A DNA stretch of 64,000 nucleotides from assembly GCA_038064675.1 (NCBI GenBank), contig JBBTSM010000003.1, forward strand, positions 191,212 to 255,211, in the 5' to 3' direction. The translations under genes were made by a program, and so were the position numbers. How positions within the stretch are numbered: position 1 is the stretch's first letter; each line of letters opens with the position of its first letter. This document shows positions 7,861 through 59,589 of this stretch, piece after piece. The notes under the pieces are model-generated. The model saw nothing but the letters and a program-made list of their open reading frames with translations. It did not search any database and was not told where the DNA came from. Source of the DNA: Patescibacteria group bacterium (lineage in GTDB: Bacteria; Patescibacteriota; Patescibacteriia; UBA9934).

Positions 7861-7910
7861 AAAAAGAGATACCAAGAGACTACCACAAAACGTTATCCAC
7901 ACCGAGAGCC

Positions 7911-7945
7911 TTGTGTTCGTCTTCTGTTCGGCTATGATACGAACA
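7911..7945 (+). promoter_or_regulatory. lexA promoter (-35 TTGTGT 7911-7916, -10 TATGAT 7933-7938) with candidate LexA operator GTTC-N7-GTTC (7915-7929) and overlapping dyad TGTTCG-N9-CGAACA (7925-7945)
   Basis: Direct repeat GTTCgtcttctGTTC in the spacer; inverted TGTTCG/CGAACA; immediately upstream of lexA ATG 7954. Confidence 0.4.
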
Positions 7946-7953
7946 TAACACGA

Positions 7954-8589
7954 ATGCCTATGTCCATTCTTCCACCACTCACCAAGAAACAACGCGAAGT
8001 CCTCGACTGTATTGAAGGCTTTGTGAAGGACAACGGCTATACGCCATCCTATCGCGAAATCGCTGAACAGCTCGGCCTTTCGTCCCCAGCCACCATTCAC
8101 CAGCACATCAAAACGCTCTGCGAAAAAGGCATCATCAATACCGGCGACAGAGGAGAAGCGCGAAGTATCGAGCTCGTGGAGCCAGAACGCATGTCCCCTC
8201 TCGCCATTATGCTCCCATTGGCCGGGCTTATCACCGCCGGCGAACCCATCGAAGCTGTGGAGCAGAACGAGGCTATGGCCATTCCCGCAGACTTCGTGAT
8301 GGACCCAATGAACTCATACATTCTCAAAGTGAAAGGACGATCAATGATTGAAGATGGCATCTTCGACGGCGACTATGTGGTGGTTGAGCGAAATCCCTCA
8401 CCAAAGAATGGAGACATCGTGGTCGCGCTCCTTGATAACGCCTACGCTACACTCAAGCGCTTCTATCGCGAACGTGATCACATCCGTCTCCAACCCGCCA
8501 ACAGCACCATGCAACCAATCATCGTCAAAGGAGATTTAAACATTCAAGGAATTGTCCGAGCCGTGATGCGACGTTTTTCTACAATCTAA
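7954..8589 (+). CDS. lexA: LexA repressor
   Basis: N-terminal winged HTH (LTKKQREVLDCIEGFVKDNGYTPSYREIAEQLGLSSPATIHQHIKTLCEKG), C-terminal S24 peptidase with Ser (KVKGRSM) and Lys (LKRF) and cleavage-site region (LAGLITAGEPIEA). Confidence 0.85.
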   Translation: MPMSILPPLTKKQREVLDCIEGFVKDNGYTPSYREIAEQLGLSSPATIHQHIKTLCEKGIINTGDRGEARSIELVEPERMSPLAIMLPLAGLITAGEPIEAVEQNEAMAIPADFVMDPMNSYILKVKGRSMIEDGIFDGDYVVVERNPSPKNGDIVVALLDNAYATLKRFYRERDHIRLQPANSTMQPIIVKGDLNIQGIVRAVMRRFSTI

Positions 8590-8774: not shown

Positions 8775-9026
8775 ATGCCTGTTCACGAACTCCTCAACGA
8801 ACCCGTCGATGTCCGTGTCGAGTTTGCGGGAAAGCGCGTTCGTCCAACGCACGTGCATTGGGGAAAGAAAACGTATGTCATGAAAAAGGTGAACCTCGTG
8901 CACGGCACAAACGAAGGCGAAAAACGCATCTATTACTTCTCTGTTTCCGACGACACATCGTTTATGAAACTTCGTTTAGACACTGGGGCTTTAGCGTGGA
9001 GCATTGTTGAATTTTATAGCGAATAA
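8775..9026 (+). CDS. hypothetical small protein downstream of lexA (MPVHELLNEPVDVRVEFAGKRVRPTHVHWGKKTYVMKK…)
   Basis: ~84-aa ORF between lexA and dinB on same strand; start uncertain; no family recognised. Confidence 0.3.
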   Translation: MPVHELLNEPVDVRVEFAGKRVRPTHVHWGKKTYVMKKVNLVHGTNEGEKRIYYFSVSDDTSFMKLRLDTGALAWSIVEFYSE

Positions 9027-9189
9027 ATATGAACACCCGTCGGAGGACCGGAAATCGTTTTACCTTTTCGCTCAGCGAAATTCTCTCGTCACACATCCAA
9101 AAAGCCCGCAAACACCGCGCCATCCTCAAACCGCGCACCCAAGCACGACGGTTTGAGAATAATCTTCGTCTACCGTTAGCGCTACTGAA

Positions 9190-9359
9190 TCGGGAGTGAC
9201 GCGAAGCGAACGATTCAACGGGTGGCGCCGAGGGAGGCCCCCGTACGGAGCGCAACGAGCGCCGCACAAACTCGATGCTTACGCAAAGGGTTCACGTGCG
9301 AGCTGAGCACCGTAACGGGGTCCGAGGCGACAGGACCCGTTGATGAGTGAGAGAAGCCT
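9190..9359 (+). promoter_or_regulatory. Candidate structured 5' leader of dinB containing conserved 19-nt motif TCAACGGGTGGCGCCGAGG (9215-9233)
   Basis: Motif identical to 54842-54860; 5' TCAACGGG (9215-9222) can pair with CCCGTTGA (9336-9343), competing with local hairpin GGGGTCC/GGACCC (9317-9338) just before the RBS/ATG. Confidence 0.3.
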
Positions 9360-10631
9360 ATGTCTCGATTGATTCTGCACATTGATTTCAATTCATTCTT
9401 TGCGTCCGTTGAGGCGCAGGCAAATCCTTTTCTTCGTGGAAAGGCGTTTGCGGTTGCCGGCAAAGGCAAAGGGAGAATCGATCGCGAGGCAGGGGCGATC
9501 CAAGGAAAACGAACGTCCATCAGCGAGCTCTCCCATTCACGGTCGGTCGTCACCACCGCGTCGCGCGAAGCCAAAAAACTTGGTGTCAAAACCGCGATGA
9601 CAACGCACGAGGCGCAGCGCATCATCCCAAATCTCCCCATCATTCCCGGCGATCCTCGAAAGTACGCTGAGGTTACACATCGATTCCTCAAAATTCTTCG
9701 AACACACTGCGACGCCGTTGAGCAGTTTAGTGTTGACGAAGCGTTTGCAGATATTACCACCGTTGCCGCAGACAAATTTGGCGCGATTCTTCTTGCGCAA
9801 ATTCTTCGGTCGAAGATCGTCGAAACCATTGGCGAAGCGTGCACAGCGTCCATTGGTATTGGCCCGAATAAAGTTATCGCAAAACTTGCGAGCGAGCTTG
9901 TAAAACCAAATGGATTTACTTACGTCGATCCTTCCGAGGTGGAGTCCTTTGTTGCCGCGCGCGATCTTCGCGACATCTGCGGTATCGGCCCCCGGCTTGG
10001 CAAACGCCTCACCAACCTTGGCATCACCACCATTCTGCATCTTCGTGCAGCGCCGATGGATCGCCTCATCGCCGAATTCGGTCCGCACACCGCGGAGTTT
10101 CTCTGGAACGTTTCGCGCGGGATTGGCGATGATGTGGTTGTCGATTCCGAAGACGATCCAAAGTCCGTCGGTCATTCCTACACATTCCCCCACGGACTTG
10201 AAACCGATCAGGAAGTTCACGACAACCTTCTTGCACTCGCCGACATGGTTGCGCAACGTTTACGAAATCAGAATCTCTTCGCAACCCACGTGAGTCTCTT
10301 TGCGCGATACGAAGACGGCGGCGGATCCGGAACAAGCGCCCAGCTTCCAGAAGCAACCAACGACGGCCTCACACTCTTCGAGCACGGATTCCGATCGCTT
10401 CTTCCTATCATCGATCTCGATCGCGGCATCCGCCTGCTCGGAATCAGCGCAACGCACTTCGCGGAAAAGATTCCCTCCCTCATTCCCGAACACAACGAAC
10501 GCTACGATCGCTGTATTTCCGCCCTCGACCTCATCGCTAAAAAGTTTGGCACCGGCGCCTGGCACAGAGCAAGCACCCTGAATACGGTTTTCCTAGAACG
10601 AGTTAGTGGGTGGCATTATGATCATGAGTAA
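9360..10631 (+). CDS. dinB: DNA polymerase IV (Y-family translesion polymerase)
   Basis: HIDFNSFFASVE… and SVDEAFADIT catalytic motifs; palm/fingers/little-finger layout; adjacent to lexA. Confidence 0.85.
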   Translation: MSRLILHIDFNSFFASVEAQANPFLRGKAFAVAGKGKGRIDREAGAIQGKRTSISELSHSRSVVTTASREAKKLGVKTAMTTHEAQRIIPNLPIIPGDPRKYAEVTHRFLKILRTHCDAVEQFSVDEAFADITTVAADKFGAILLAQILRSKIVETIGEACTASIGIGPNKVIAKLASELVKPNGFTYVDPSEVESFVAARDLRDICGIGPRLGKRLTNLGITTILHLRAAPMDRLIAEFGPHTAEFLWNVSRGIGDDVVVDSEDDPKSVGHSYTFPHGLETDQEVHDNLLALADMVAQRLRNQNLFATHVSLFARYEDGGGSGTSAQLPEATNDGLTLFEHGFRSLLPIIDLDRGIRLLGISATHFAEKIPSLIPEHNERYDRCISALDLIAKKFGTGAWHRASTLNTVFLERVSGWHYDHE

Positions 10632-10636
10632 TCTAA

Positions 10637-10712
10637 TTTAGTCATCCCCGCGTAGGCGGAGATCCATCTTTCAACAACGAACACTCTGGATCCCCGCCTA
10701 CGCGGGGATGAC
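10637..10712. repeat. REP/BIME-like element: two inverted 25-nt palindromic units GTCATCCCCGCGTAGGCGG(A)GATCC … GGATCCCCGCCTACGCGGGGATGAC
   Basis: Each unit is itself a hairpin (ATCCCCGC-CTAC-GCGGGGAT); second copy of the unit at 55017-55045; sits between convergent dinB and PEBP genes (bidirectional terminator-like). Confidence 0.6.
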
Positions 10713-20940: not shown

Positions 20941-21057
20941 CGATGATGTATTGAACGCCTGTGAGATGTGATGAATAAGTGCCCGTAGAAGACGGCAGAA
21001 TAGTACTAAACTTTGCTAAAATTCGCAAATGAATCCTACAAAAATTCTGATATTTGT

Positions 21058-21160
21058 GGCGAGTTTCGATGAAGAGCGAGAAAATGTCCCGAAAACGTAC
21101 TTCTCGGTACGTTGAGGGAATTTTCGATGGTCTGAGTCGAAAATCGACCAAATAGCAGGA
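21058..21160 (+). repeat. ~100-bp intergenic repeat element, copy 2
   Basis: GCGAGTTTCGATGAAGAGCGAGAAAATGTCCCGAAAACGTACTTCTCGGTACGTTGAGGGAATTTTCGATGGTCTGAGTCGAAAATCGACCAAAT; upstream of rpsB (minus) start region. Confidence 0.65.
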
Positions 21161-21163
21161 TTT

Positions 21164-22174
21164 TTAGCGAATAAACATGGCGTCTCCAAAGGAAAAGAAT
21201 CGGTATCTGTGATCGATAGCTTCTTTATAGGCAGCGAGGATGTGCTCGCGATCGGCGAAGGCGGAAACGAGCATGAGCAAGGTGGATTTTGGAAGGTGGA
21301 AGTTGGTTATAAGGCCATCGACGATCTGAAATTGGAATCCCGGCGTAATAAACATATTCACTTCCCCGCTGTACGCCGCAAGCTCACCAATCGTTGCAAC
21401 AACGCCCTCAAGAACTCGCACCGTCGTTGTTCCCACCGCAATAACCCGACAACCTTCTGACTTCGCCGATCGAATTCTCTGTGCGGTCAATTCATCGATT
21501 TCCACAAACTCGGCATGCATCACATGATCCTCGATGTGATCAGTTTGCACCGGGCGGAACGTGCCGATCCCCACATGAAGCGTCACTTCCTCGATCTGTA
21601 CGCCTTTCGCCCGTGCTCGATCGATGAGTTCGGGGGTGAAGTGGAGTCCTGCGGTTGGTGCGGCGACTGAACCGGTCGATCTTGCATAGACGGTTTGATA
21701 GCGATCGGGATCCGCGAGCTCGGTCGTGACGTATGGTGGCGTTGGTACTGATCCTGCAGATTCACAAAACGCAAACATCTCCCCCGCTGTCATCGATGAT
21801 TTCAGGGTCACGATTCCGTCTGTTGTTTTATTAGAGACGACCCAGCGGGTCGTCTCTACGGTGATCGCAGATCCGATACCTAATTTTCTGCTCCCGCGAA
21901 TCAATACATCGATTTCACCATCGCGAACCTTGAGGACGAAAACTTCGAAGCCGTCGATCTGAAGACGAGCCTTAAAAACCTTTGAAACATTAAAGACGAG
22001 AACGTCGCCGGCATTCAACTCGTCGAGAATTTCAGCAAATCGATCGCGATGACGGATCTCCCCCGAATTCCGGTCGAGCACCAACAGCCTCGATGCATCC
22101 CGTGGCTCAATAGGAACCTGAGCGATCAGCTCCTCCGGCAAATCGTACGAAAAATCAGCAACAGGCGTTGGCAT
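21164..22174 (-). CDS. queA: S-adenosylmethionine:tRNA ribosyltransferase-isomerase
   Basis: MPTPVADFSYDLPEELIAQVPIEPRDASRLLVL…, GTTTVRVLE motifs. Confidence 0.9.
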   Translation of the reverse strand: MPTPVADFSYDLPEELIAQVPIEPRDASRLLVLDRNSGEIRHRDRFAEILDELNAGDVLVFNVSKVFKARLQIDGFEVFVLKVRDGEIDVLIRGSRKLGIGSAITVETTRWVVSNKTTDGIVTLKSSMTAGEMFAFCESAGSVPTPPYVTTELADPDRYQTVYARSTGSVAAPTAGLHFTPELIDRARAKGVQIEEVTLHVGIGTFRPVQTDHIEDHVMHAEFVEIDELTAQRIRSAKSEGCRVIAVGTTTVRVLEGVVATIGELAAYSGEVNMFITPGFQFQIVDGLITNFHLPKSTLLMLVSAFADREHILAAYKEAIDHRYRFFSFGDAMFIR

Positions 22175-23183: not shown

Positions 23184-23358
23184 TTTCCGCACTTATTCGG
23201 CTGTATACAAAGCAGCCTAACAAGAACCTTCCCATTTGGCCGATTTTCGACTCACGCCATCGGAAACTTTCTCACCGTACCGTTAAGTACGCCTCGAAAA
23301 TTTTCCTCGTCGTTCATCGAAACTCGTCACAAATGAAAAGGTTCTTACCAAAACCCTT

Positions 23359-29987: not shown

Positions 29988-30025
29988 AAGAATATCTTCT
30001 GACTTGATGAGGAATTTCTTATTTT

Positions 30026-30130
30026 AGACTAGTTTCGATGAACAGCGAGCAAAGTTTCCGAGGTGTACCTCTCGGTACATCGAGGAAATTTGCGATGATG
30101 TGAGTCGAAAATAGACAAAATAAGGAATTC
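30026..30130 (+). repeat. ~100-bp intergenic repeat element, copy 3
   Basis: TTTTAGACTAGTTTCGATGAACAGCGAGCAAAGTTTCCGAGGTGTACCTCTCGGTACATCGAGGAAATTTGCGATGATGTGAGTCGAAAATAGACAAAATAAGGAATTC; in divergent region between 29987 gene and gyrB. Confidence 0.7.
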
Positions 30131-30153
30131 CTCTTCTGTCAACAGGATTATAA

Positions 30154-39424: not shown

Positions 39425-40246
39425 ATGCTCATCGCGTTCGTTCCGGTTCTCCACAAAGGCTACATCAACCTTTTTAAAAAATACCCCGACACGCTGGGCA
39501 TTCTTGGCGCTGACGTTATCGCCGACTTCACCGCGCTCACTCGCGACTGCCGCATGGTCGAGCCTGAAGCGATGAAACTCGCGATCGAGAGCCTCAAAAT
39601 CTTTTCGTCTGTTCGTGTACTCTCGAAATCGGATCTCGCAGAAATCGCTCAATCAATGTTGCCGATCGTCATGCCAGATGAAGACGTTTCGCGCGAAATC
39701 GCAAAACAGCATTTCGCCGATCGCACAGTATTCGAATCGATATTTCTCCGATGGGACGGCATGAGAACGTTACGCGAGAATATTGCTGCCCCGGATCGAA
39801 AGATCTCTTCAGATGACTTCGCGAGGTCGATGATCCGTCTGGCAACCGCCGAAGCAACAAAGAGCAGTGACTGGTGGCGACAGGTTGGAACAGCAATCGT
39901 TAAAGACGGCGTTGTTATCGCGCTCAGTCACAACAGGCACCTCCCCACCGATTATCATCTCGACGTCGAAGGCGATCCGCGAACGAATTTCGATGCCGGC
40001 GTTCGAATCGATCTCTCAACCGCGATCCATTCAGAAGCGCTCGCGGTCGCGCAAAGCGCAAAAGCAGGCACACCACTCAATGGCGCCGACGCTTTCGTCA
40101 CTACATTCCCCTGCCCCAACTGCGCACGCTTGCTTGCCGAAGCAGGAATCAAGACCGTGTACTACAACAAAGGATATTCACTGCTTGATGCGGAGGAGAT
40201 TCTGAAGGCGTACGGGATTGAAATCGTGCTCGTCGAAATGAACTGA
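39425..40246 (+). CDS. dCMP (deoxycytidylate) deaminase with ~130-aa N-terminal extension
   Basis: C-terminal CDA fold: HSEALAV (HxE) … TTFPCPNCARLLAEAGIKTVYY (PCxxC); start overlaps stop of upstream gene (TAATATG). Confidence 0.7.
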   Translation: MLIAFVPVLHKGYINLFKKYPDTLGILGADVIADFTALTRDCRMVEPEAMKLAIESLKIFSSVRVLSKSDLAEIAQSMLPIVMPDEDVSREIAKQHFADRTVFESIFLRWDGMRTLRENIAAPDRKISSDDFARSMIRLATAEATKSSDWWRQVGTAIVKDGVVIALSHNRHLPTDYHLDVEGDPRTNFDAGVRIDLSTAIHSEALAVAQSAKAGTPLNGADAFVTTFPCPNCARLLAEAGIKTVYYNKGYSLLDAEEILKAYGIEIVLVEMN

Positions 40247-40247
40247 A

Positions 40248-40274
40248 GGGGTCAGGTCTTGAATCTATGCATTT
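40248..40274. repeat. 27-bp perfect inverted repeat, left arm GGGGTCAGGTCTTGAATCTATGCATTT
   Basis: Exact reverse complement present ~515 bp away (40789-40816); flanks HIT gene. Confidence 0.75.
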
Positions 40275-40316
40275 CTTCTTTTATGAAAAATATGGCTCTT
40301 GCATATTTCAATCCAG

Positions 40317-40760
40317 CTAACCCAAGCGCGTGAATACTCCAATTTTTGGATCATAACTCGGATCATCTGGATCGGATTGCAAAAGCTGACAGTGCAAATG
40401 AGAAACCGTCGACCCGGTAAATCGCATGTCACCAAACCGCATAAACATCGACCCAGCAGACATTTTGAAAATCGCCGTCTGTTCTTTAAGAATTTCTCCG
40501 AGCTCGATCCAAGCTTCTGAAGAAATTTGCGATATATGCTCAATATGCGTTCGGTGAATAAGGAGTTTGTGATGTTTTGTCGGTTTGTAAGGAAACTGAT
40601 TATCCGTGATAATCCAAAACATTCGCTGTTCCATCGGCTTCGTATGAATCCTGTTAAGATGCTGAGGACAAAAAGGGCAAATCTTCTGCTCAGTAATTTC
40701 AGCAATCACTTTATCGTATCCTCCTGGACGAGCATTTTGTTGATTAACGAAGTCATTCAT
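40317..40760 (-). CDS. HIT-superfamily protein, GalT/Ap4A-phosphorylase-like branch (H-x-H-x-Q)
   Basis: CPFCP zinc motif, …FPYKPTKHHKLLIHRTH…, STVSHLHCQLL triad variant. Confidence 0.55.
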   Translation of the reverse strand: MNDFVNQQNARPGGYDKVIAEITEQKICPFCPQHLNRIHTKPMEQRMFWIITDNQFPYKPTKHHKLLIHRTHIEHISQISSEAWIELGEILKEQTAIFKMSAGSMFMRFGDMRFTGSTVSHLHCQLLQSDPDDPSYDPKIGVFTRLG

Positions 40761-40788
40761 ACTTCAAAACGACCTAAAACTTTCTTCA

Positions 40789-40816
40789 AAATGCATAGAT
40801 TCAAGACCTGACCCCA
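40789..40816. repeat. 27-bp perfect inverted repeat, right arm AAATGCATAGATTCAAGACCTGACCCC
   Basis: Reverse complement of 40248-40274. Confidence 0.75.
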
Positions 40817-40821
40817 TCAGT

Positions 40822-42222
40822 TTACACCGGCGTCGGAATAATCATCGCCTCGTGCGGTTCGTAGTCGGCGACCGTGAAATGTTCTGGACGAAAGTCGAGA
40901 AGATCGGTGACGGTGGAGTCCATGTACATCGTTGGGAACGTACGAGGCTCGCGGTCGAGGAGTTGTTTGACGTGTTCAAACTGGCTTTCGTAAATGTGTG
41001 CGTCGGAAATAGTGTACACGAGCTCCTTTGGGGTGTAGCCCGTTGCTTGAGCGATCATCATCGTGAATGCGGCGTATTGGATGATGTTAAAAACGACGCC
41101 AACCGGAACGTCGCCACTGCGTTGGAAGTGATGAACCGAAAGCTGTTTTGTTTCTGGGAACACGAGGATGTGCAAATAGCCGTGGCATGGTGCGACGACG
41201 ACTTTGCGCGGAGAGATTCCTGAATGTTGCAGTGTGTACTGCGGAATCCACGGCGAAATAATGTGCGTGCGCAAATTTGGTCGCTCCTTGATTTGCTTCA
41301 CGACGTGCTCAATTTGATTGAACGGCTCGCCTTCACTTGTTGGAAACGCGGTCCATGCCGGGCCATAGCTTCCTGGACCAAGATCGCCTTCCGGCAAGCC
41401 GAAAATATCACAACGCTCTTTCGTCACCCATTTTTTCCACCACGCACAACCAAACGCCTTCAATTCTTCCTGCGTTCGCGCGCCGTGAAGGAACGCGAAG
41501 TGCTCACCGAGCGCACCAACCATGAAGCGTCCGCCGAGGTCGCGCTCCGTAATCATTGGGAATCCGTTCGCCAAATCGAAATGCATCTGCGCGCCAAGGA
41601 TCATGCGGGATCCTTCGCCTTGAATTGGCTTTACATCAACACCTTCTTCGAGAATTTTCTTGAGCAAATGATGATACTGCCAATCGATAGTACGTTCGAT
41701 AACCGGCTTCATGAACGATCGCTGCACGCGGTAGTGCAGAAGAACACTTCGTGCGTTCAGCTTTCGCGTATCGACGAGTTCGAGATTCACACGAGCAAAT
41801 TTTTCACCAAGTGGAACACCGTTACCGAACAAGAATGGCTCGAGAGTTAAAAAGACTTCATCGACGAGGCCGGCATCCAAAAACTGTCCGTACACCGAAG
41901 CTCCCCCACCAAGCGCTATTGTTTCAATGCCTTCGCCGATCAACCGCTTCACCAAAACCGCCGGAGAATCATTCGTGAATTCAACACCCTCGATCGGAGC
42001 CGCCGCTTCCGGATTCTTCGTTAATACAATCACCCGCCGGTCCTTCAAACCCTTCCCAATCGTGGCAAACGTCGTGCGGCCCATCACGACCACGCCAGCT
42101 TCCTTCGTCTTTTCCACAAAAAACTGCGTATCCTCCGCACTCGTCCAATCCAACGAGGATTGATCCACTTTTTCCGCAATTTTCCCATCCGCGCTCATGG
42201 CGGCAATCAGCCAGATTTTCAT
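40822..42222 (-). CDS. thyA: Bifunctional dihydrofolate reductase-like (RibD_C/DHFR family) – thymidylate synthase fusion
   Basis: N-terminal IAAMSADGKIA… DHFR-like reductase domain; C-terminal ThyA with DLGPGSYGPAW, VVAPCHGY (catalytic Cys), QRSGDVPVGVVFNIIQYA, DAHIY motifs. Confidence 0.85.
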   Translation of the reverse strand: MKIWLIAAMSADGKIAEKVDQSSLDWTSAEDTQFFVEKTKEAGVVVMGRTTFATIGKGLKDRRVIVLTKNPEAAAPIEGVEFTNDSPAVLVKRLIGEGIETIALGGGASVYGQFLDAGLVDEVFLTLEPFLFGNGVPLGEKFARVNLELVDTRKLNARSVLLHYRVQRSFMKPVIERTIDWQYHHLLKKILEEGVDVKPIQGEGSRMILGAQMHFDLANGFPMITERDLGGRFMVGALGEHFAFLHGARTQEELKAFGCAWWKKWVTKERCDIFGLPEGDLGPGSYGPAWTAFPTSEGEPFNQIEHVVKQIKERPNLRTHIISPWIPQYTLQHSGISPRKVVVAPCHGYLHILVFPETKQLSVHHFQRSGDVPVGVVFNIIQYAAFTMMIAQATGYTPKELVYTISDAHIYESQFEHVKQLLDREPRTFPTMYMDSTVTDLLDFRPEHFTVADYEPHEAMIIPTPV

Positions 42223-54811: not shown

Positions 54812-54841
54812 ATGCGGAAATTATAACACGAAGTGACGGAG

Positions 54842-54860
54842 TCAACGGGTGGCGCCGAGG
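54842..54860 (+). other. second copy of 19-nt motif TCAACGGGTGGCGCCGAGG (preceded by AGTGACGGAG as at 9197-9214)
   Basis: Exact 19/19 identity with 9215-9233; located between dnaE 3' end and upstream gene start. Confidence 0.4.
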
Positions 54861-55016
54861 ATATCGCAAGTGCCAGTGGCGAGGGCGCATGTTTCGCAAC
54901 GAGCAGCATGTCGTCCAGCCACGGTCGAACGAAGTGAGACGTCGTGGCGTAGCGATCGTTGCGCACAGTGAAGAAACATGTACCCGAGCCACCAGCTTGC
55001 GATGAAGATACAGGTC

Positions 55017-55045
55017 TGGATCCCCGCCTACGCGGGGATGACTCA
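55017..55045. repeat. REP-like palindromic unit CTGGATCCCCGCCTACGCGGGGATGACTC
   Basis: Identical to the right unit at 10684-10712; 3' of dnaE; spuriously translated as …WIPAYAGMT… / …DPRLRGDD… in track ORFs. Confidence 0.6.
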
Positions 55046-55073: not shown

Positions 55074-58000
55074 TTACACCTTCACATTCTCCTCCCCCAC
55101 CACTTCCCTCACCTTTTTTACGACCTCAAGCGAGAGCTCCACGGAATACTCCGTGGTGACTTTTCGCATTTCACCGCCGGATTCCACCAGAAGGAACACG
55201 CGAGCACGGCCAGGATGGGCACGGAAAATTTCACGAAGCCGCGCAATCATGTCGTGCGTTGGATTTTGCGGAACGGTGATCGACAATCCTTCGGAAAGCG
55301 ATCCCGCTGGCGCGGCGACCGGAGGCGGAGCATCCATCATCATCGGAATATCTGACGCATTCGAATCCGTCCATCCGCCACGCGCGAGCATCGATGTCAG
55401 CGACGGGATCTCCGATTCAGTAAAAGCAATTACACCGTCCACCAACACCGAATATTCCACCGTTTCCGATTCCTCCCGCTTACGATGCGATACCTTCCCC
55501 ATAATGAGCAGCATCGCCTCCGGATTCAGCGACATGCGAGCAGAGACGTAGATCTTTGGGAAAACGACCGATTCGATACTACCGGACGGATCTTCGATTC
55601 GGACGAATGCCATCGGTTCGTTTTTCTTCTTCGTAAAAATCTGCTTAATGTTACTTGCGACGCCGGCAATCTTCACCATCGCGCCGTCCTCATACGTCGG
55701 AATCGCGCTCGCTTTCACGATGTACGGCGAGAATTGATCGTAAAACAACCCCGCTGGATGTGATGAGACATACAGCCCAAGAAGCTCTTTCTCCCATGTG
55801 AGCAACAAGCTCGTTGGAATCGTCGGAACACTTCTGAACTCGATCTTCTGCTCCACAATCGACGTACTCAACCCAAACAACGACGTTTGGTTGCGTGCCA
55901 GTTCGTGCTGAACGTGCTTGTTGTACAGAACGAGGGTATCGAGGTTGCCCACGAGCTGTGAACGGTCGCCGAAGCGGTCGAGCGCACCGGCTTTCGTGAG
56001 CGCCTCGAGTGTTTTGCGGTTAAACGCGCTCGTCTTTACGCGGCCTAAAACATCAGCGAGATCCGCATACGGACCGCCTCGCTTTCGTTCGCGAACAATT
56101 TCTTCGGCGACTTCTTGTCCAACGTTCTTAATCGCAGATAATCCCCAACGCACATTCTTCGTATCCTTCACCACCGCAAAGCCAGCGAATGATTCGTTGA
56201 TGTCTGGCGCAAGCACCGTCAGCCCCATGCGTCGGCACTCCTCAACTTCGATAGTGATGCGGTCAATAATTCCTGAATCGGAATTCATCAACGCAGCCAT
56301 AAACTCCCCCGGATAATGCGCCTTCAAATACGCCGTGCGATACGCAATCATCGCATAGCATGCCGCATGAGATTTGTTGAAACCGTACGCAGCGAAATCT
56401 TCCAGTTTCTGGAACACCTTCATCGCAACATCGGGCTTTACGCCATTTTTCACGGAGCCGTCCACGAACTTTACCTTCATCTTCTCCATCAGCTCCGCAA
56501 TTTTCTTTCCCATGGCCTTACGGAGCGTGTCAGCTTCGCCTCCGGTAAAGCCCGCCATATCCTTTGCGACTTGCATCACCTGCTCCTGATACACCGGAAT
56601 ACCGTACGTTTCCCGGAACGAGTTCTCCATGAGTGGATGCTCATACACCACTTTTTCCGTTCCGTGCTTTCGGCGAATAAAACTTTCAATGAACTGCATC
56701 GGCCCCGGGCGATACAACGACACCATGGCGATAATATCCTCGAACGCGCTTGGCTTGAGCTCTTTAATATATCGCTTCATGCCGTCGGATTCCAACTGGA
56801 ACACGCCGGTAGTGTCGCCACGGCCAAGAAGCTCGAACGTCATCACATCGTCCAACGGCGCATTATCAAGGTCAACCACCACACCATGTACCGCGCGAAT
56901 AATATCGAGCGCGTCTTCGATGACTGTTAAGTTGGAAAGGCCAAGGAAGTCCATTTTCACGAGACCAACGGCCTCTGCGGAGTTCAGCGAATACTGTGTG
57001 ATGAGCGCCATGTCCTCCTTCTGGCCTTGCTGCAACGGAACACGCTGCACCAATGGCTTATCGCCAATCACAATACCGCACGCGTGCTGCGAAGCATGAC
57101 GAGGATTACCCTCAATCTTCATGGCAAGATCGATCACGCGGCGCACCATGGGGTTACCGTTGTACATCTGCTGCAAATCTGGCGTTTCCACAATCGCAAC
57201 CTTGAGCGGCGTGTGCTTTCCTTGAATCGGCGGTGGAACAACCTTCGCAATAACGTCGGCCTCTTGGAACGACAATCCAAGCACACGAGCCGCATCGCGA
57301 ACCGCAGCACGAGGCATGAGTGTTCCAAACGTCACAATACCTGCCACGTGATCCGCGCCGTATCGTTTCGTCACGTATTCCAACACTTTTCCGCGACCAC
57401 GATCGGCAAAGTCCGTATCAATATCCGGCATCGATACGCGATCCGGATTGAGAAAACGCTCAAAGAGCAAGTTGTATCGCAATGGCTCGATGTCCGTAAT
57501 ACGAAGTGCGTATGCAACGATGCTTCCGGCAGCCGATCCACGACCAGGCCCCACGAGCACCCCGTTATCTTTTGCCCACGTAATGTAGTCTTGAACGATT
57601 AAAAAGTACGACGAGAATCCCATCTTCACGATGGTGGCATATTCAAACTCAAATCGTTCCATGACGTTCGCGGGAATTGGATCGGCGTACCGGTCTTTCA
57701 ATCCTTGAATACACAACTCGTGCATCACATCGTTGTCCGTCTTCCCTTCTGGCAACGGATAAATCGGCAAAAAGTTCTTTCCCAATTCCATTGTGTAACT
57801 GACGCGATCCGCGATGCGCCGCGTGTTCTCGAGCGCTTCCGGGACATCGGCAAACGCCGCCATAATCTCATCCGGGGTTCCGAAGGAAAGATCAACGTCA
57901 TCCGTGGATGTACGACGAAAATCCTCAAGCGTACGACTGCGCTGAATACACAACTGCGCTTCGTATCCCTCGCGGTCGTCCGAGTTGAGATAGAACACGT

Positions 58001-58625
58001 TCTTGGTGGCGATCAGTGGAACATCAAGCTTTGCCGAAAGCGCTCGGAACGCATCGTTGATATCCACCTGCCGCGGCATGTCCGGATGATGAATGAGCTC
58101 GAGAAAGAAATTCCCCGCCCCAAAAATATCTTGATACTCACGAATAAGCGTTTCTGCCTTTTCGTGCTCGCCACCAAGATACGCGTGCGCGATTTCACCA
58201 CTGACACTTCCGGAAAGCGCGATGAGACCCTTCGAGTGAGCCCGAAGAAACGCCTTATCGACACGTGGTTTGTAGTAAAAACCTTCGAGGAATGCAGCAG
58301 AAACAATCGCAAGCAAATTTCGATATCCCTCTTCGTTTTCCACGATAAGGACGAGACGATACGGGCGGTCGTCGAGACGAGGCCTACGGTCCGTCATGCC
58401 GTGCTGTGCCACGAAGATATCCGCACCAATAATCGGCTTAATTTCCGCGTCCTTGCACGCCTTATAAAACTCCACCGCGCCGTACAGGTTTCCGTTGTCC
58501 GTTAACGCCAGTGCCGTCATTCCCATGCTTTTTGCACGCGCAACAAGCGCCTTGGGCTTTGGCAGCGCCTCAAGGAGCGAATAATGCGAATGGACGTGCA
58601 AATAGACGAAATCTTTCGGGTCCAT
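55074..58625 (-). CDS. dnaE: DNA polymerase III alpha subunit
   Basis: PHP domain start MDPKDFVYLHVHSHYSLLEA…; polymerase core, OB fold; true start at ATG 58623-58625 (track ORF extends 240 codons further with no homology). Confidence 0.95.
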   Translation of the reverse strand: MDPKDFVYLHVHSHYSLLEALPKPKALVARAKSMGMTALALTDNGNLYGAVEFYKACKDAEIKPIIGADIFVAQHGMTDRRPRLDDRPYRLVLIVENEEGYRNLLAIVSAAFLEGFYYKPRVDKAFLRAHSKGLIALSGSVSGEIAHAYLGGEHEKAETLIREYQDIFGAGNFFLELIHHPDMPRQVDINDAFRALSAKLDVPLIATKNVFYLNSDDREGYEAQLCIQRSRTLEDFRRTSTDDVDLSFGTPDEIMAAFADVPEALENTRRIADRVSYTMELGKNFLPIYPLPEGKTDNDVMHELCIQGLKDRYADPIPANVMERFEFEYATIVKMGFSSYFLIVQDYITWAKDNGVLVGPGRGSAAGSIVAYALRITDIEPLRYNLLFERFLNPDRVSMPDIDTDFADRGRGKVLEYVTKRYGADHVAGIVTFGTLMPRAAVRDAARVLGLSFQEADVIAKVVPPPIQGKHTPLKVAIVETPDLQQMYNGNPMVRRVIDLAMKIEGNPRHASQHACGIVIGDKPLVQRVPLQQGQKEDMALITQYSLNSAEAVGLVKMDFLGLSNLTVIEDALDIIRAVHGVVVDLDNAPLDDVMTFELLGRGDTTGVFQLESDGMKRYIKELKPSAFEDIIAMVSLYRPGPMQFIESFIRRKHGTEKVVYEHPLMENSFRETYGIPVYQEQVMQVAKDMAGFTGGEADTLRKAMGKKIAELMEKMKVKFVDGSVKNGVKPDVAMKVFQKLEDFAAYGFNKSHAACYAMIAYRTAYLKAHYPGEFMAALMNSDSGIIDRITIEVEECRRMGLTVLAPDINESFAGFAVVKDTKNVRWGLSAIKNVGQEVAEEIVRERKRGGPYADLADVLGRVKTSAFNRKTLEALTKAGALDRFGDRSQLVGNLDTLVLYNKHVQHELARNQTSLFGLSTSIVEQKIEFRSVPTIPTSLLLTWEKELLGLYVSSHPAGLFYDQFSPYIVKASAIPTYEDGAMVKIAGVASNIKQIFTKKKNEPMAFVRIEDPSGSIESVVFPKIYVSARMSLNPEAMLLIMGKVSHRKREESETVEYSVLVDGVIAFTESEIPSLTSMLARGGWTDSNASDIPMMMDAPPPVAAPAGSLSEGLSITVPQNPTHDMIARLREIFRAHPGRARVFLLVESGGEMRKVTTEYSVELSLEVVKKVREVVGEENVKV

Positions 58626-58823
58626 GGGCGTAGAGTAACAGACCACGCGTGTTTGAGCGTTGTGGACAGGTTTCGGCCTAGACGAAATCTCGTTTTTCTG
58701 CGAATATAAGCCACGCAACCTAGGTACTTCATGCACGTTCCCCGTCCCCTTCCCATCACTCGTTCTCTCTTCCACTTCCTGGCCCGGAAGCCCCGCATCA
58801 ACGATATCCTTCGCCACCGCGAG

Positions 58824-59237
58824 ATGACGATGAAGCTCGCCGAGAGCATCGCCCTCCACGGCGCGATGGCTGCGGTGTTCGTGTGGCTCGTCACAAACGT
58901 ATTCCTCGGCTTCGGGCCAGCGCTCCCCTTCGTCACCTTCCTGGCGTTCGCTTCGTGGGCAGCCCTCTACCTGAAGGCCCAGAACCCGGTGATGAGCACG
59001 CTTCTCTGGGGCGGCAAGATCTACATCTTCAACGGCTTCGGCGGCTACAACTTCACCACCGAAATCGGGGTCGTCGAAAACAAGGAGATTTTGGTAGCCG
59101 TGGAAGTCTGCGTTCCTGGGGTGTTCTTCTTTCTCCCCGATCGCCGCTCCGAGCTCCGGCCGTTCAAGCCGCACTCGCAATATGTTGAGATCGCGTGGAC
59201 CGCCGAAGCCGTCGCCGACGCGATGCGGGCAGAGTGA
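58824..59237 (+). CDS. GC-rich small membrane protein (orphan cassette) in dnaE upstream region
   Basis: 137 aa, 2-3 TM helices; terminator GGCCCCGTGAGAGCCGCCGAAAGGTGGTGACTCCGGGGC + TTTGCCGTTTCGTGTTACC. Confidence 0.4.
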   Translation: MTMKLAESIALHGAMAAVFVWLVTNVFLGFGPALPFVTFLAFASWAALYLKAQNPVMSTLLWGGKIYIFNGFGGYNFTTEIGVVENKEILVAVEVCVPGVFFFLPDRRSELRPFKPHSQYVEIAWTAEAVADAMRAE

Positions 59238-59328
59238 GCCAACTGTTCCACACAACACGAGGCCCCGTGAGAGCCGCCGAAAGGTGGTGACTCCGGGGCT
59301 TTGCCGTTTCGTGTTACCATTTCTGCAT

Positions 59329-59589
59329 ATGGATTCTAAAGACATTCTCTACATGGTGCTTGCGTTTTGCGCGCTGTGGTTTACGGCGTTCCTCTGTTTT
59401 GCGCTCTACCAGGTGGCACGATTCATGAAACGAATGCAGGAACTCTCCGCACACCTTCGAGAAAAGGCAGATGAGGTACTCAACAGCATCAACACCATCC
59501 GCATGAAAATTGAAGGCCACGTGAACGCCATCACCAGCATCGGCGACGGGATTCGGAAAATCATGGACGCGTTAAGGAATCGAGAGTAG
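59329..59589 (+). CDS. small membrane-anchored coiled-coil protein
   Basis: 87 aa; N-terminal TM (LYMVLAFCALWFTAFLCFALY) then helical region; strong terminator 59592-59630. Confidence 0.4.
   Translation: MDSKDILYMVLAFCALWFTAFLCFALYQVARFMKRMQELSAHLREKADEVLNSINTIRMKIEGHVNAITSIGDGIRKIMDALRNRE

Follow-up and report, generated by a model that had tools for sequence, protein, structure and literature searches.

The 64-kb stretch of DNA analysed here (the window) carries, by Pfam gene calls, lexA, dinB (9360–10631), a PEBP gene (minus strand), thrS and dnaE (55074–59345, minus strand). The real start of lexA lies near 7954–7960, and the gene is followed by an 83-aa open reading frame (orf83, 8775–9026) and a 56-aa one (orf56, 9029–9199). 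Differences in orf56 among relatives are synonymous, indicating that the 56-aa frame is a real gene. The 83-aa frame and the basic 56-aa frame belong to no Pfam family and in relatives always stand between lexA and dinB.

Two places in this region share the 19-mer TCAACGGGTGGCGCCGAGG, which occurs exactly twice in the window, at 9215–9233 (+) beside dinB and at 54842–54860 (+) beside dnaE. An earlier note on this DNA had reported the identical pair, and it is not a chance match: shuffled sequences average 0.02 matches and 0 of 100 shuffles reached two. No further copy with up to three mismatches is found within the 64-kb window. Homology between the sites spans 35 nt at 86% identity (9199–9233 versus 54826–54860). 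The AGTGACG that the note had placed before each 19-mer is present at both sites, but it stands out of register (offset −19 at one, −10 at the other) and thus lies outside the shared homology.

The dinB copy (9200–9359) fills the entire 160-nt spacer between orf56 and dinB. It is a 129-nt rod hairpin in which two arms of ~46 nt are inverted around a variable spacer and closed by TCAACGGGT/ACCCGTTGA, and it consists of the following parts:

9200–9214, plus strand: 5′ flank module CGCGAAGCGAACGAT, starting directly after the orf56 TGA stop (9197–9199)
9215–9233, plus strand: the 19-mer, start of the 5′ arm and of the closing helix P1
9215–9260, plus strand: 5′ conserved arm of a type-1 rod, 45/46 nt identical to the orthologous copy at locus L005 (flanking genes 80–87%)
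9261–9296, plus strand: variable apical spacer of subfamily 1b, still a hairpin, with an AU/GC compensatory pair at its base; 63–79% identical between orthologous copies
9297–9343, plus strand: 3′ conserved arm, 47/47 nt identical to L005, holding a local hairpin (9314–9341) and CCCGTTGA (9336–9343)
9344–9359, plus strand: purine-rich 3′ flank module TGAGTGAGAGAAGCCT, abutting the dinB ATG at 9360

Both of the competing pairings that the earlier note had proposed for this copy exist. In the predicted structure, CCCGTTGA, 16 nt before the ATG, pairs with the start of the 19-mer (9215–9222) at probabilities of 0.66–1.0, and pair probabilities in the outer helix of the rod are near 1. The local GGGGTCC/GGACCC hairpin, in which AACGGGGTCC (9314–9323) pairs with GGACCCGTT (9333–9341), is the self-fold of the 3′ arm; this arm alone forms a 9-bp hairpin of −15.2 kcal/mol, and the weakly palindromic 5′ arm alone forms a stem of 5–8 bp with a large loop (−15.7 kcal/mol). 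Two competing pairings thus arise because two palindromic arms stand in inverted orientation. They are not evenly matched, the rod (−63.5 kcal/mol) being favoured by about 25 kcal/mol over the three local hairpins summed (−38 kcal/mol). The fold of the whole element has a z score of −3.7, and within the lexA–orf83–orf56–dinB mRNA, if co-transcribed, it would be expected to form a very stable hairpin.

After the dnaE stop (55074, minus strand), 262 nt of spacer precede the next minus-strand gene, which encodes 383 aa. The second copy sits in this spacer and is antisense to both bordering genes. It is built differently:

54826–54860, plus strand: solo type-1 5′ end made up of the 5′ flank module and the 19-mer; the ATG (54811) of the minus-strand 383-aa gene is 31 nt away
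54863–55003, plus strand: type-2 rod hairpin ATCGCAAG...CTTGCGAT, recognised by its fold energy and by homologous rods at loci L013, L017, L024 and L029
55018–55042, plus strand: REP-like hairpin GGATCCCCGC-CTAC-GCGGGGATGAC, one of 20 copies (window and loci L001–L036)

Folding energies of the type-2 rod are −98 kcal/mol (z −5.0) for the plus strand and −88 kcal/mol (z −3.9) for the minus strand. No CCCGTTGA partner is present at this site, so the alternative pairing is possible for the dinB copy only. We considered and rejected orthology of this copy with those at L001 and L010, which stand between a gene for a malic enzyme of 382 aa and uvrD.

Several features of the genes around the dnaE-side repeat deserve record. 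The 383-aa gene belongs to no Pfam family. By eye, an extended −10 box, TGTTATAAT, lies ~9 nt upstream of its ATG (window 54812–54830), so near the start codon that a leaderless or nearly leaderless mRNA is implied; this putative promoter is located between repeat and gene, outside the repeat. DnaE itself is 1423 aa long, and its first recognised domain, PHP, begins at residue 249, behind an N-terminal extension of ~250 residues.

A wider motif search, proposed in the earlier note, placed the 19-mer in a family. Scanning one genome per species for exact matches returned 26, of which 19 fell in three MAGs: two labelled Candidatus Uhrbacteria (CALRCK01 with 10 copies, CALRHV01 with 6) and one labelled Gammaproteobacteria (CAYROW01 with 3). 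The other seven were lone matches in unrelated taxa, with dissimilar surrounding sequence and no element, and are compatible with chance; by our own calculation, about four lone matches are expected by chance in 596 Gb. A metagenome scan added three more genuine copies, all on contigs from well H41 of the Hainich aquifer, the source of the window itself; the window's DinB protein is also encoded in the H41 metagenome. The 22 further genuine copies (19 + 3) were found via exact 19-mer matches only. CAYROW01 (loci L016, L022 and L025), labelled 'uncultured Gammaproteobacteria', shares the repeat family with the Uhrbacteria MAGs; its taxonomic label is probably wrong, or the bin mixed.

Alignment of all copies defines a type-1 unit of ~129 nt, of which the 19-mer is the first 19 nt, and repeat length ranges from 130 to 200 bases across the family. 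The type-1 consensus reads TCAACGGGTGGCGCCGAGGGAGGYCCCCGTACGGAGCGCAACGAGC, a variable region of ~36 nt and GYGCGAGCTGAGCACCGTAACGGGGTCCGAGGCGACAGGACCCGTTGA, with short, purine-rich flank modules resembling GCGAAGCGAACGAT before it and GATGAGTGAGNGAAG after it. Upstream of the 19-mer, a GCGNAGCGARYGAW-like sequence stands in nearly all copies; directly after the rod, a GATGAGTGAGNGAAG-like sequence stands in most; and the 25-nt hairpin GGATCCCCGCCTACGCGGGGATGAC comes after most units. The terminal inverted repeats TCAACGGGT/ACCCGTTGA are perfect over 9 nt and continue imperfectly through the arms.

RNAalifold on 15 type-1 copies yielded a single rod composed of the helices TCAACGGGT/ACCCGTTGA, CGCC/GGYG, GGG/UCC, CCCC/GGGG, GUACGG/CCGUAAC and GCAC/GUGC, with 97.5% of cells paired on the consensus. 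Covariation, one of the checks suggested in the earlier note, gave a divided answer. Compensatory changes occur at four pairs: L012 has them at three adjacent pairs, and an AU/GC switch divides two subfamilies. Most rod pairs are invariant, however, and the outer helix, which the note had proposed, contains no double change. G-U pairs are commoner in the consensus helices than A-C mismatches, a mild argument for folding of the motif strand. Folding energies of single copies range from −50 to −72 kcal/mol. A strand-specific RNA fold was rejected, minimum free energy being equal on both strands (mean difference 0.01 kcal/mol, 8/16 each way), as is expected of a DNA palindrome. The further copies and some compensatory variation support the claim that the motif is part of an element that is conserved and has a strong structure.

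Other identities for the element were tried and set aside. An Rfam scan, which the note had also recommended, gave 0 matches in the window at the gathering score (Rfam 15), and relaxing the E-value to 10 for both spacers returned noise only. A hammerhead ribozyme was considered, as UUGAUGAG after the rod resembles the core by eye; neither stem II nor GAAA is present, and Rfam gives no match. Protein coding is excluded by internal indels of 17 and 28 nt, and an origin of phage or plasmid type was discarded, with no match in a phage collection or among viral contigs.

We traced DinB relatives to their contigs for comparison of the dinB leader. The gene order metK / lexA–orf83–orf56–dinB / PEBP is conserved among them, and only the window and L005 (DinB 93% identical) have the element in this leader; the 5′ flank module is also found in L005. 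At L035, whose DinB is likewise 93% identical, the spacer reads TGA-GCGAAGCG-TT-ATG and keeps an 8-nt remnant of the flank module, which is most simply read as a deletion scar. Loci L036 (DinB 85%), L037 (79%), L038 (77%) and L039 (67%) have no element and spacers of 5–35 nt, and the empty site of L037 lacks the 5′ flank module. A site of the opposite kind is found elsewhere in the window:

1563–1565, no strand: empty site, with xseA and the gene upstream of it 3 nt apart

The syntenic xseA site in the MAG TrH-25oct19-208 (L006) carries a repeat insertion of ~270 nt. Besides these gains and losses, three pairs of orthologous copies are retained (window/L005, L002/L008 and L001/L010), with arms identical at 92/93, 88/93 and 87/93 positions (94–99%), compared with 80–87% for the coding flanks and 63–79% for the spacer. 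Comparisons of filled and empty sites revealed no clear target-site duplication, the flank modules blurring the boundaries, and the only direct repeat around an insert is the GACAGG at a 28-nt insert in L016 and L018. At empty dinB sites, the gap between orf56 and dinB is only 5–10 nt, a spacing that suggests translational coupling, which repeat insertion would have broken.

The family is a mosaic of modules, as nested and chimeric units indicate. The junction of 19-mer and type-2 rod seen at dnaE recurs, occurring at at least three non-orthologous loci (L013/L024, L017 and the window). At L029 a type-2 rod stands without the 19-mer; at L032 the tip of a type-2-like stem holds a complete type-1 unit; and at L025 type-1 ends surround a type-2-like core. 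Non-orthologous copies have the 17-nt and 28-nt internal inserts in common, and orthologous copies can differ there, a pattern that points to copying or gene conversion of whole units. The 28-nt insert occupies the same position in the 3′ arm of two non-orthologous copies from two genomes (L016 and L018); it contains a perfect 26-nt palindrome, GTCACGTCAGTCGCGACTGACGTGAC, with GACAGG on either side, and looks like a still smaller nested insertion with duplication.

The REP-like 25-nt hairpin, a clear palindrome with GTAG in its loop on the other strand, constitutes a second repeat family, with three of its 20 copies in the window and 17 in loci L001–L036. It typically lies directly 3′ of a rod in the same orientation. 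Its positions in the window are:

10641–10665, minus strand: REP-like hairpin
10688–10712, plus strand: REP-like hairpin
10641–10712, no strand: inverted doublet formed by these two, in the spacer between the convergent dinB and PEBP genes
55018–55042, plus strand: REP-like hairpin of the dnaE side

The doublet is conserved in L005; L036 has a single hairpin, and L035 and L038 have none. The copy at L013:7289 has a compensatory C>A/G>T change in its stem.

Copies of the family occupy ~20 distinct loci and lie in intergenic spacers, which may be tandem, convergent or divergent, with the element sense or antisense. Neighbouring genes include folD/uvrA, malic enzyme/uvrD, ABC-F, ksgA, atpD, a TrmB-like regulator, secF, glycosyltransferases, a methyltransferase and dnaA (347 nt away), and xseA adjoins a copy in a genome syntenic with the window. 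Given this variety of neighbours and orientations, the link to DNA-polymerase and DNA-damage genes drawn in the earlier note is not supported. Six of the ~20 loci do touch a replication or repair gene (dinB, dnaE, uvrA, uvrD, xseA and dnaA), compared with ~2 expected by our own rough estimate (5–6% of genes in the class). This count is post hoc, however, and falls to 4/18 without the two window loci; we therefore rejected functional enrichment for repair genes as not robust. The position beside two polymerase genes is largely coincidental, and we advise against annotating the motif as a regulatory site for polymerase or SOS genes.

A separate candidate for SOS control is found upstream of lexA, at 7915–7945, where GTTCG-N6-GTTCG overlaps TGTTCG-N9-CGAACA around the −10 box. 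The arrangement is conserved in six orthologous lexA promoters and unique in the window; this direct repeat and inverted repeat over the −10 box make a candidate LexA operator for this CPR lineage. The lexA promoter (7905–7960) is almost invariant in six relatives, with TTGCGT, GTTCG-N6-GTTCG, TATGAT and CGAACA, and has a very short leader. An SOS box within the repeat was rejected, as neither the element nor the uvrA, uvrD and dnaA loci contain the candidate operator. Promoter and terminator consensus scans in or beside either window copy returned nothing.

Orientation relative to replication was assessed from GC skew. The window has negative skew throughout, irrespective of gene orientation and including the plus-strand lexA–dinB operon, indicating that the skew reflects replication. 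Among type-1 copies of the three MAGs and the window, 16/16 have the motif on the C-rich strand (skew zero or below), whereas the three Hainich type-1 copies and 4/5 type-2 or chimeric copies lie on the G-rich strand. Counted as independent loci, and from local skew only, the bias is ~13/16, which we regard as suggestive of orientation relative to replication.

Searches for a mobilising enzyme were limited in reach. A crude tblastn with an IS608-like TnpA query found no Y1 transposase in ~330 kb (window and loci), no transposase appeared among the Pfam-scanned flanking genes, and no parent autonomous IS emerged, the 22 genuine exact-19-mer matches all being short with no ORF between their ends. 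A 147-aa gene between 34-nt inverted repeats (40241–40822) was considered as a Y1 transposase and rejected, being HIT-like at best. The sequence ATGAC stands before several units (L002, L013, L023 and the type-2 rod of L029) and forms the right-hand end of the REP-like hairpin; many copies differ.

In our interpretation, to which we assign a probability of about 0.75, the 19-mer is the conserved 5′ end of a family of mosaic palindromic repeats that are interspersed, restricted to one lineage and similar in kind to REPIN, BIME and MITE elements. On our best reading, the family is a previously undescribed mobile-type repeat confined to a narrow clade of groundwater Uhrbacteria. Its units would be non-autonomous elements of DNA that enter short spacers at gene boundaries as copies and can be lost from them again, and the conserved arms are probably recognised, as hairpins, by an enzyme acting in trans. 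Among type-1 copies, the bias towards the C-rich strand, that of lagging-strand sequence, hints at a replication-linked mechanism acting on single-stranded DNA, of the HUH/Y1 kind used by RAYT or IS200/IS605.

The closest parallel is with REPINs, described together with RAYT transposases by Bertels & Rainey (PMC3337134, PMC3116915): a REPIN is a REP doublet that forms a hairpin from conserved inverted units and a variable hairpin spacer (PMC3337134). The Uhrbacteria repeats are likewise extragenic, multi-copy, lineage-restricted and vertically persistent within the lineage, and they form a long hairpin from conserved inverted units whose spacer is less conserved; the single arms are predicted to form small hairpins too, that of the 5′ arm with a large loop, and the REP-like 25-mer also occurs as an inverted doublet (10641–10712). 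They differ in their longer arms (~46 nt), weakly palindromic on the 5′ side, and in copy number, at least 10 per genome and not hundreds. Hybrid and nested units, common here, were not reported among the REPINs of SBW25 (PMC3337134). Further differences are that no RAYT gene was found (crude probe, ~330 kb) and that the host is a CPR bacterium.

BIMEs of enterobacteria combine a short REP-type palindrome with other motifs in intergenic regions, often at gene 3′ ends or between convergent genes, and binding of IHF, gyrase or Pol I is known for them. The present family shares this mosaic construction, a REP-type palindrome recurring with other conserved motifs in varying order and orientation in intergenic spacers; its sequences are unrelated, and its rod modules are much longer than BIME linker motifs. 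Hairpin MITEs (Correia/NEMIS, ERIC, RUP and RPE) are 100–200 nt long, have terminal inverted repeats and insert at gene boundaries. Unit length, insertion at gene boundaries, rod-like folding, terminal inverted repeats, subfamilies with internal indels and presence or absence between relatives are common ground; the Uhrbacteria repeats depart from MITEs in having no evident target-site duplication, no parent IS found with the same ends, and arms more conserved than those of decaying MITEs would be. Palindrome-associated elements derived from IS200/IS605 move as single strands by 'peel and paste'. Hairpin ends and the lack of an obvious duplication are shared with these, and the suggestive orientation bias relative to the replication strands and the ATGAC left of several, though not all, units would be further resemblances; the long-range inverted symmetry seen here is absent from IS200/IS605 ends, and no TnpA was found (crude probe, ~330 kb).

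CPR (Patescibacteria) genomes are ~1 Mb in size, tightly packed and usually called poor in repeats and mobile DNA, and in the literature searched we came upon no account of repeat families of the REP, REPIN or MITE type in CPR bacteria. This family splits operons, including the lexA–dinB SOS operon, and close relatives differ in its gain and loss. It could be useful as a marker for typing strains, be a source of assembly breaks and offer a possible entry to unknown DNA- or RNA-handling enzymes.

Conservation of the arms above that of neighbouring genes could also reflect a host function, as an RNA or as a protein-binding site, instead of selfish spread. On a doubtful but compatible variant of a mobile origin, the elements would be structured sequences co-opted from repeats to serve the host as terminators, 3′-end protectors or RNase processing sites, by analogy with roles proposed for REP and BIME sequences. 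The very stable hairpins, the helices kept by compensatory changes (including that in the REP-like copy at L013:7289), the excess of G-U pairs over A-C mismatches and the fact that nearly all copies abut at least one gene 3′ end all fit such a role. The last of these loses force, however, as ~75% of spacers abut a 3′ end by chance; moreover, no U-tract follows the element in either orientation, orientation relative to transcription is mixed, and sites are dispensable between close relatives. Just as tentatively, the repeats may be more than selfish DNA: a maintained, replication-oriented REPIN-like population in an ultra-small CPR genome, whose near-invariant arms are read by a single domesticated HUH-type enzyme or another host protein, with a cellular role at gene boundaries, for instance in mRNA 3′-end formation or protection or through an effect on repair and replication genes. 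If true, this would explain why the arms evolve more slowly than adjacent coding sequence.

Far less probable is the proposal of the earlier note that the element is a cis-regulatory RNA leader or switch for dinB and polymerase genes, working through alternative pairings. The dinB copy does lie in sense orientation 16 nt upstream of the ATG, GGACCCGTTGA has two mutually exclusive pairings, and the fold is stable (z −3.7). Yet the dinB leader lacks the element in five related genomes, four with empty spacers and L035 with the scar only, and these empty orthologous sites largely refute the leader reading. A conserved position in sense orientation upstream of orthologous genes is not found: the dnaE copy is antisense, downstream of its gene and without the 3′ partner, and ~18 other loci have unrelated genes in any orientation. 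The energetic preference for the rod over the local hairpins and the lack of an Rfam match weigh in the same direction.

We consider it similarly improbable that the units are oriented DNA sites for a chromosome-handling protein acting in replication, segregation or recombination. Type-1 orientation tracks the GC skew of replication, whatever the direction of the genes, the arms hardly vary in sequence, and the six loci beside replication or repair genes might seem to agree; but two copies per 64 kb are far too sparse, and the units too long, in comparison with known polar motifs, the bias does not extend to type-2 and Hainich copies, and sites are gained and lost between relatives. The sequence GCTGGTGG, found on the strand complementary to the type-2 arm, was considered as a Chi-like or polar motif and rejected, since a k-mer skew scan of the window gave it no support and did not point to the motif. 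Finally, a chance repeat or assembly artefact can practically be dismissed, as no shuffle reached two matches and the element recurs in independent assemblies from different studies.

Two further features of the window lie apart from the rods. One is an unrelated repeat family, the third in the window, of ~130 nt and in four copies:

1927–2056: third-family copy
21051–21165: third-family copy
23222–23345: third-family copy, inverted
30008–30137: third-family copy

Its invariant blocks include AGTTTCGATGAA, GTAC..CGGTAC and TGAGTCGAAAAT, and Rfam has no match to it. One copy is directly upstream of gyrB, another lies between an RNase_H_2-like gene and the xseA operon, and the family is also conserved in L006. 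The other feature is the segment at 40241–40822, between a dCMP-deaminase gene and a fused folA–thyA gene, where 34-nt inverted repeats (97% complementary) surround ~510 nt of AT-rich sequence with the 147-aa ORF, whose similarity is weak and HIT/DcpS-like; the segment is possibly an inserted cassette.
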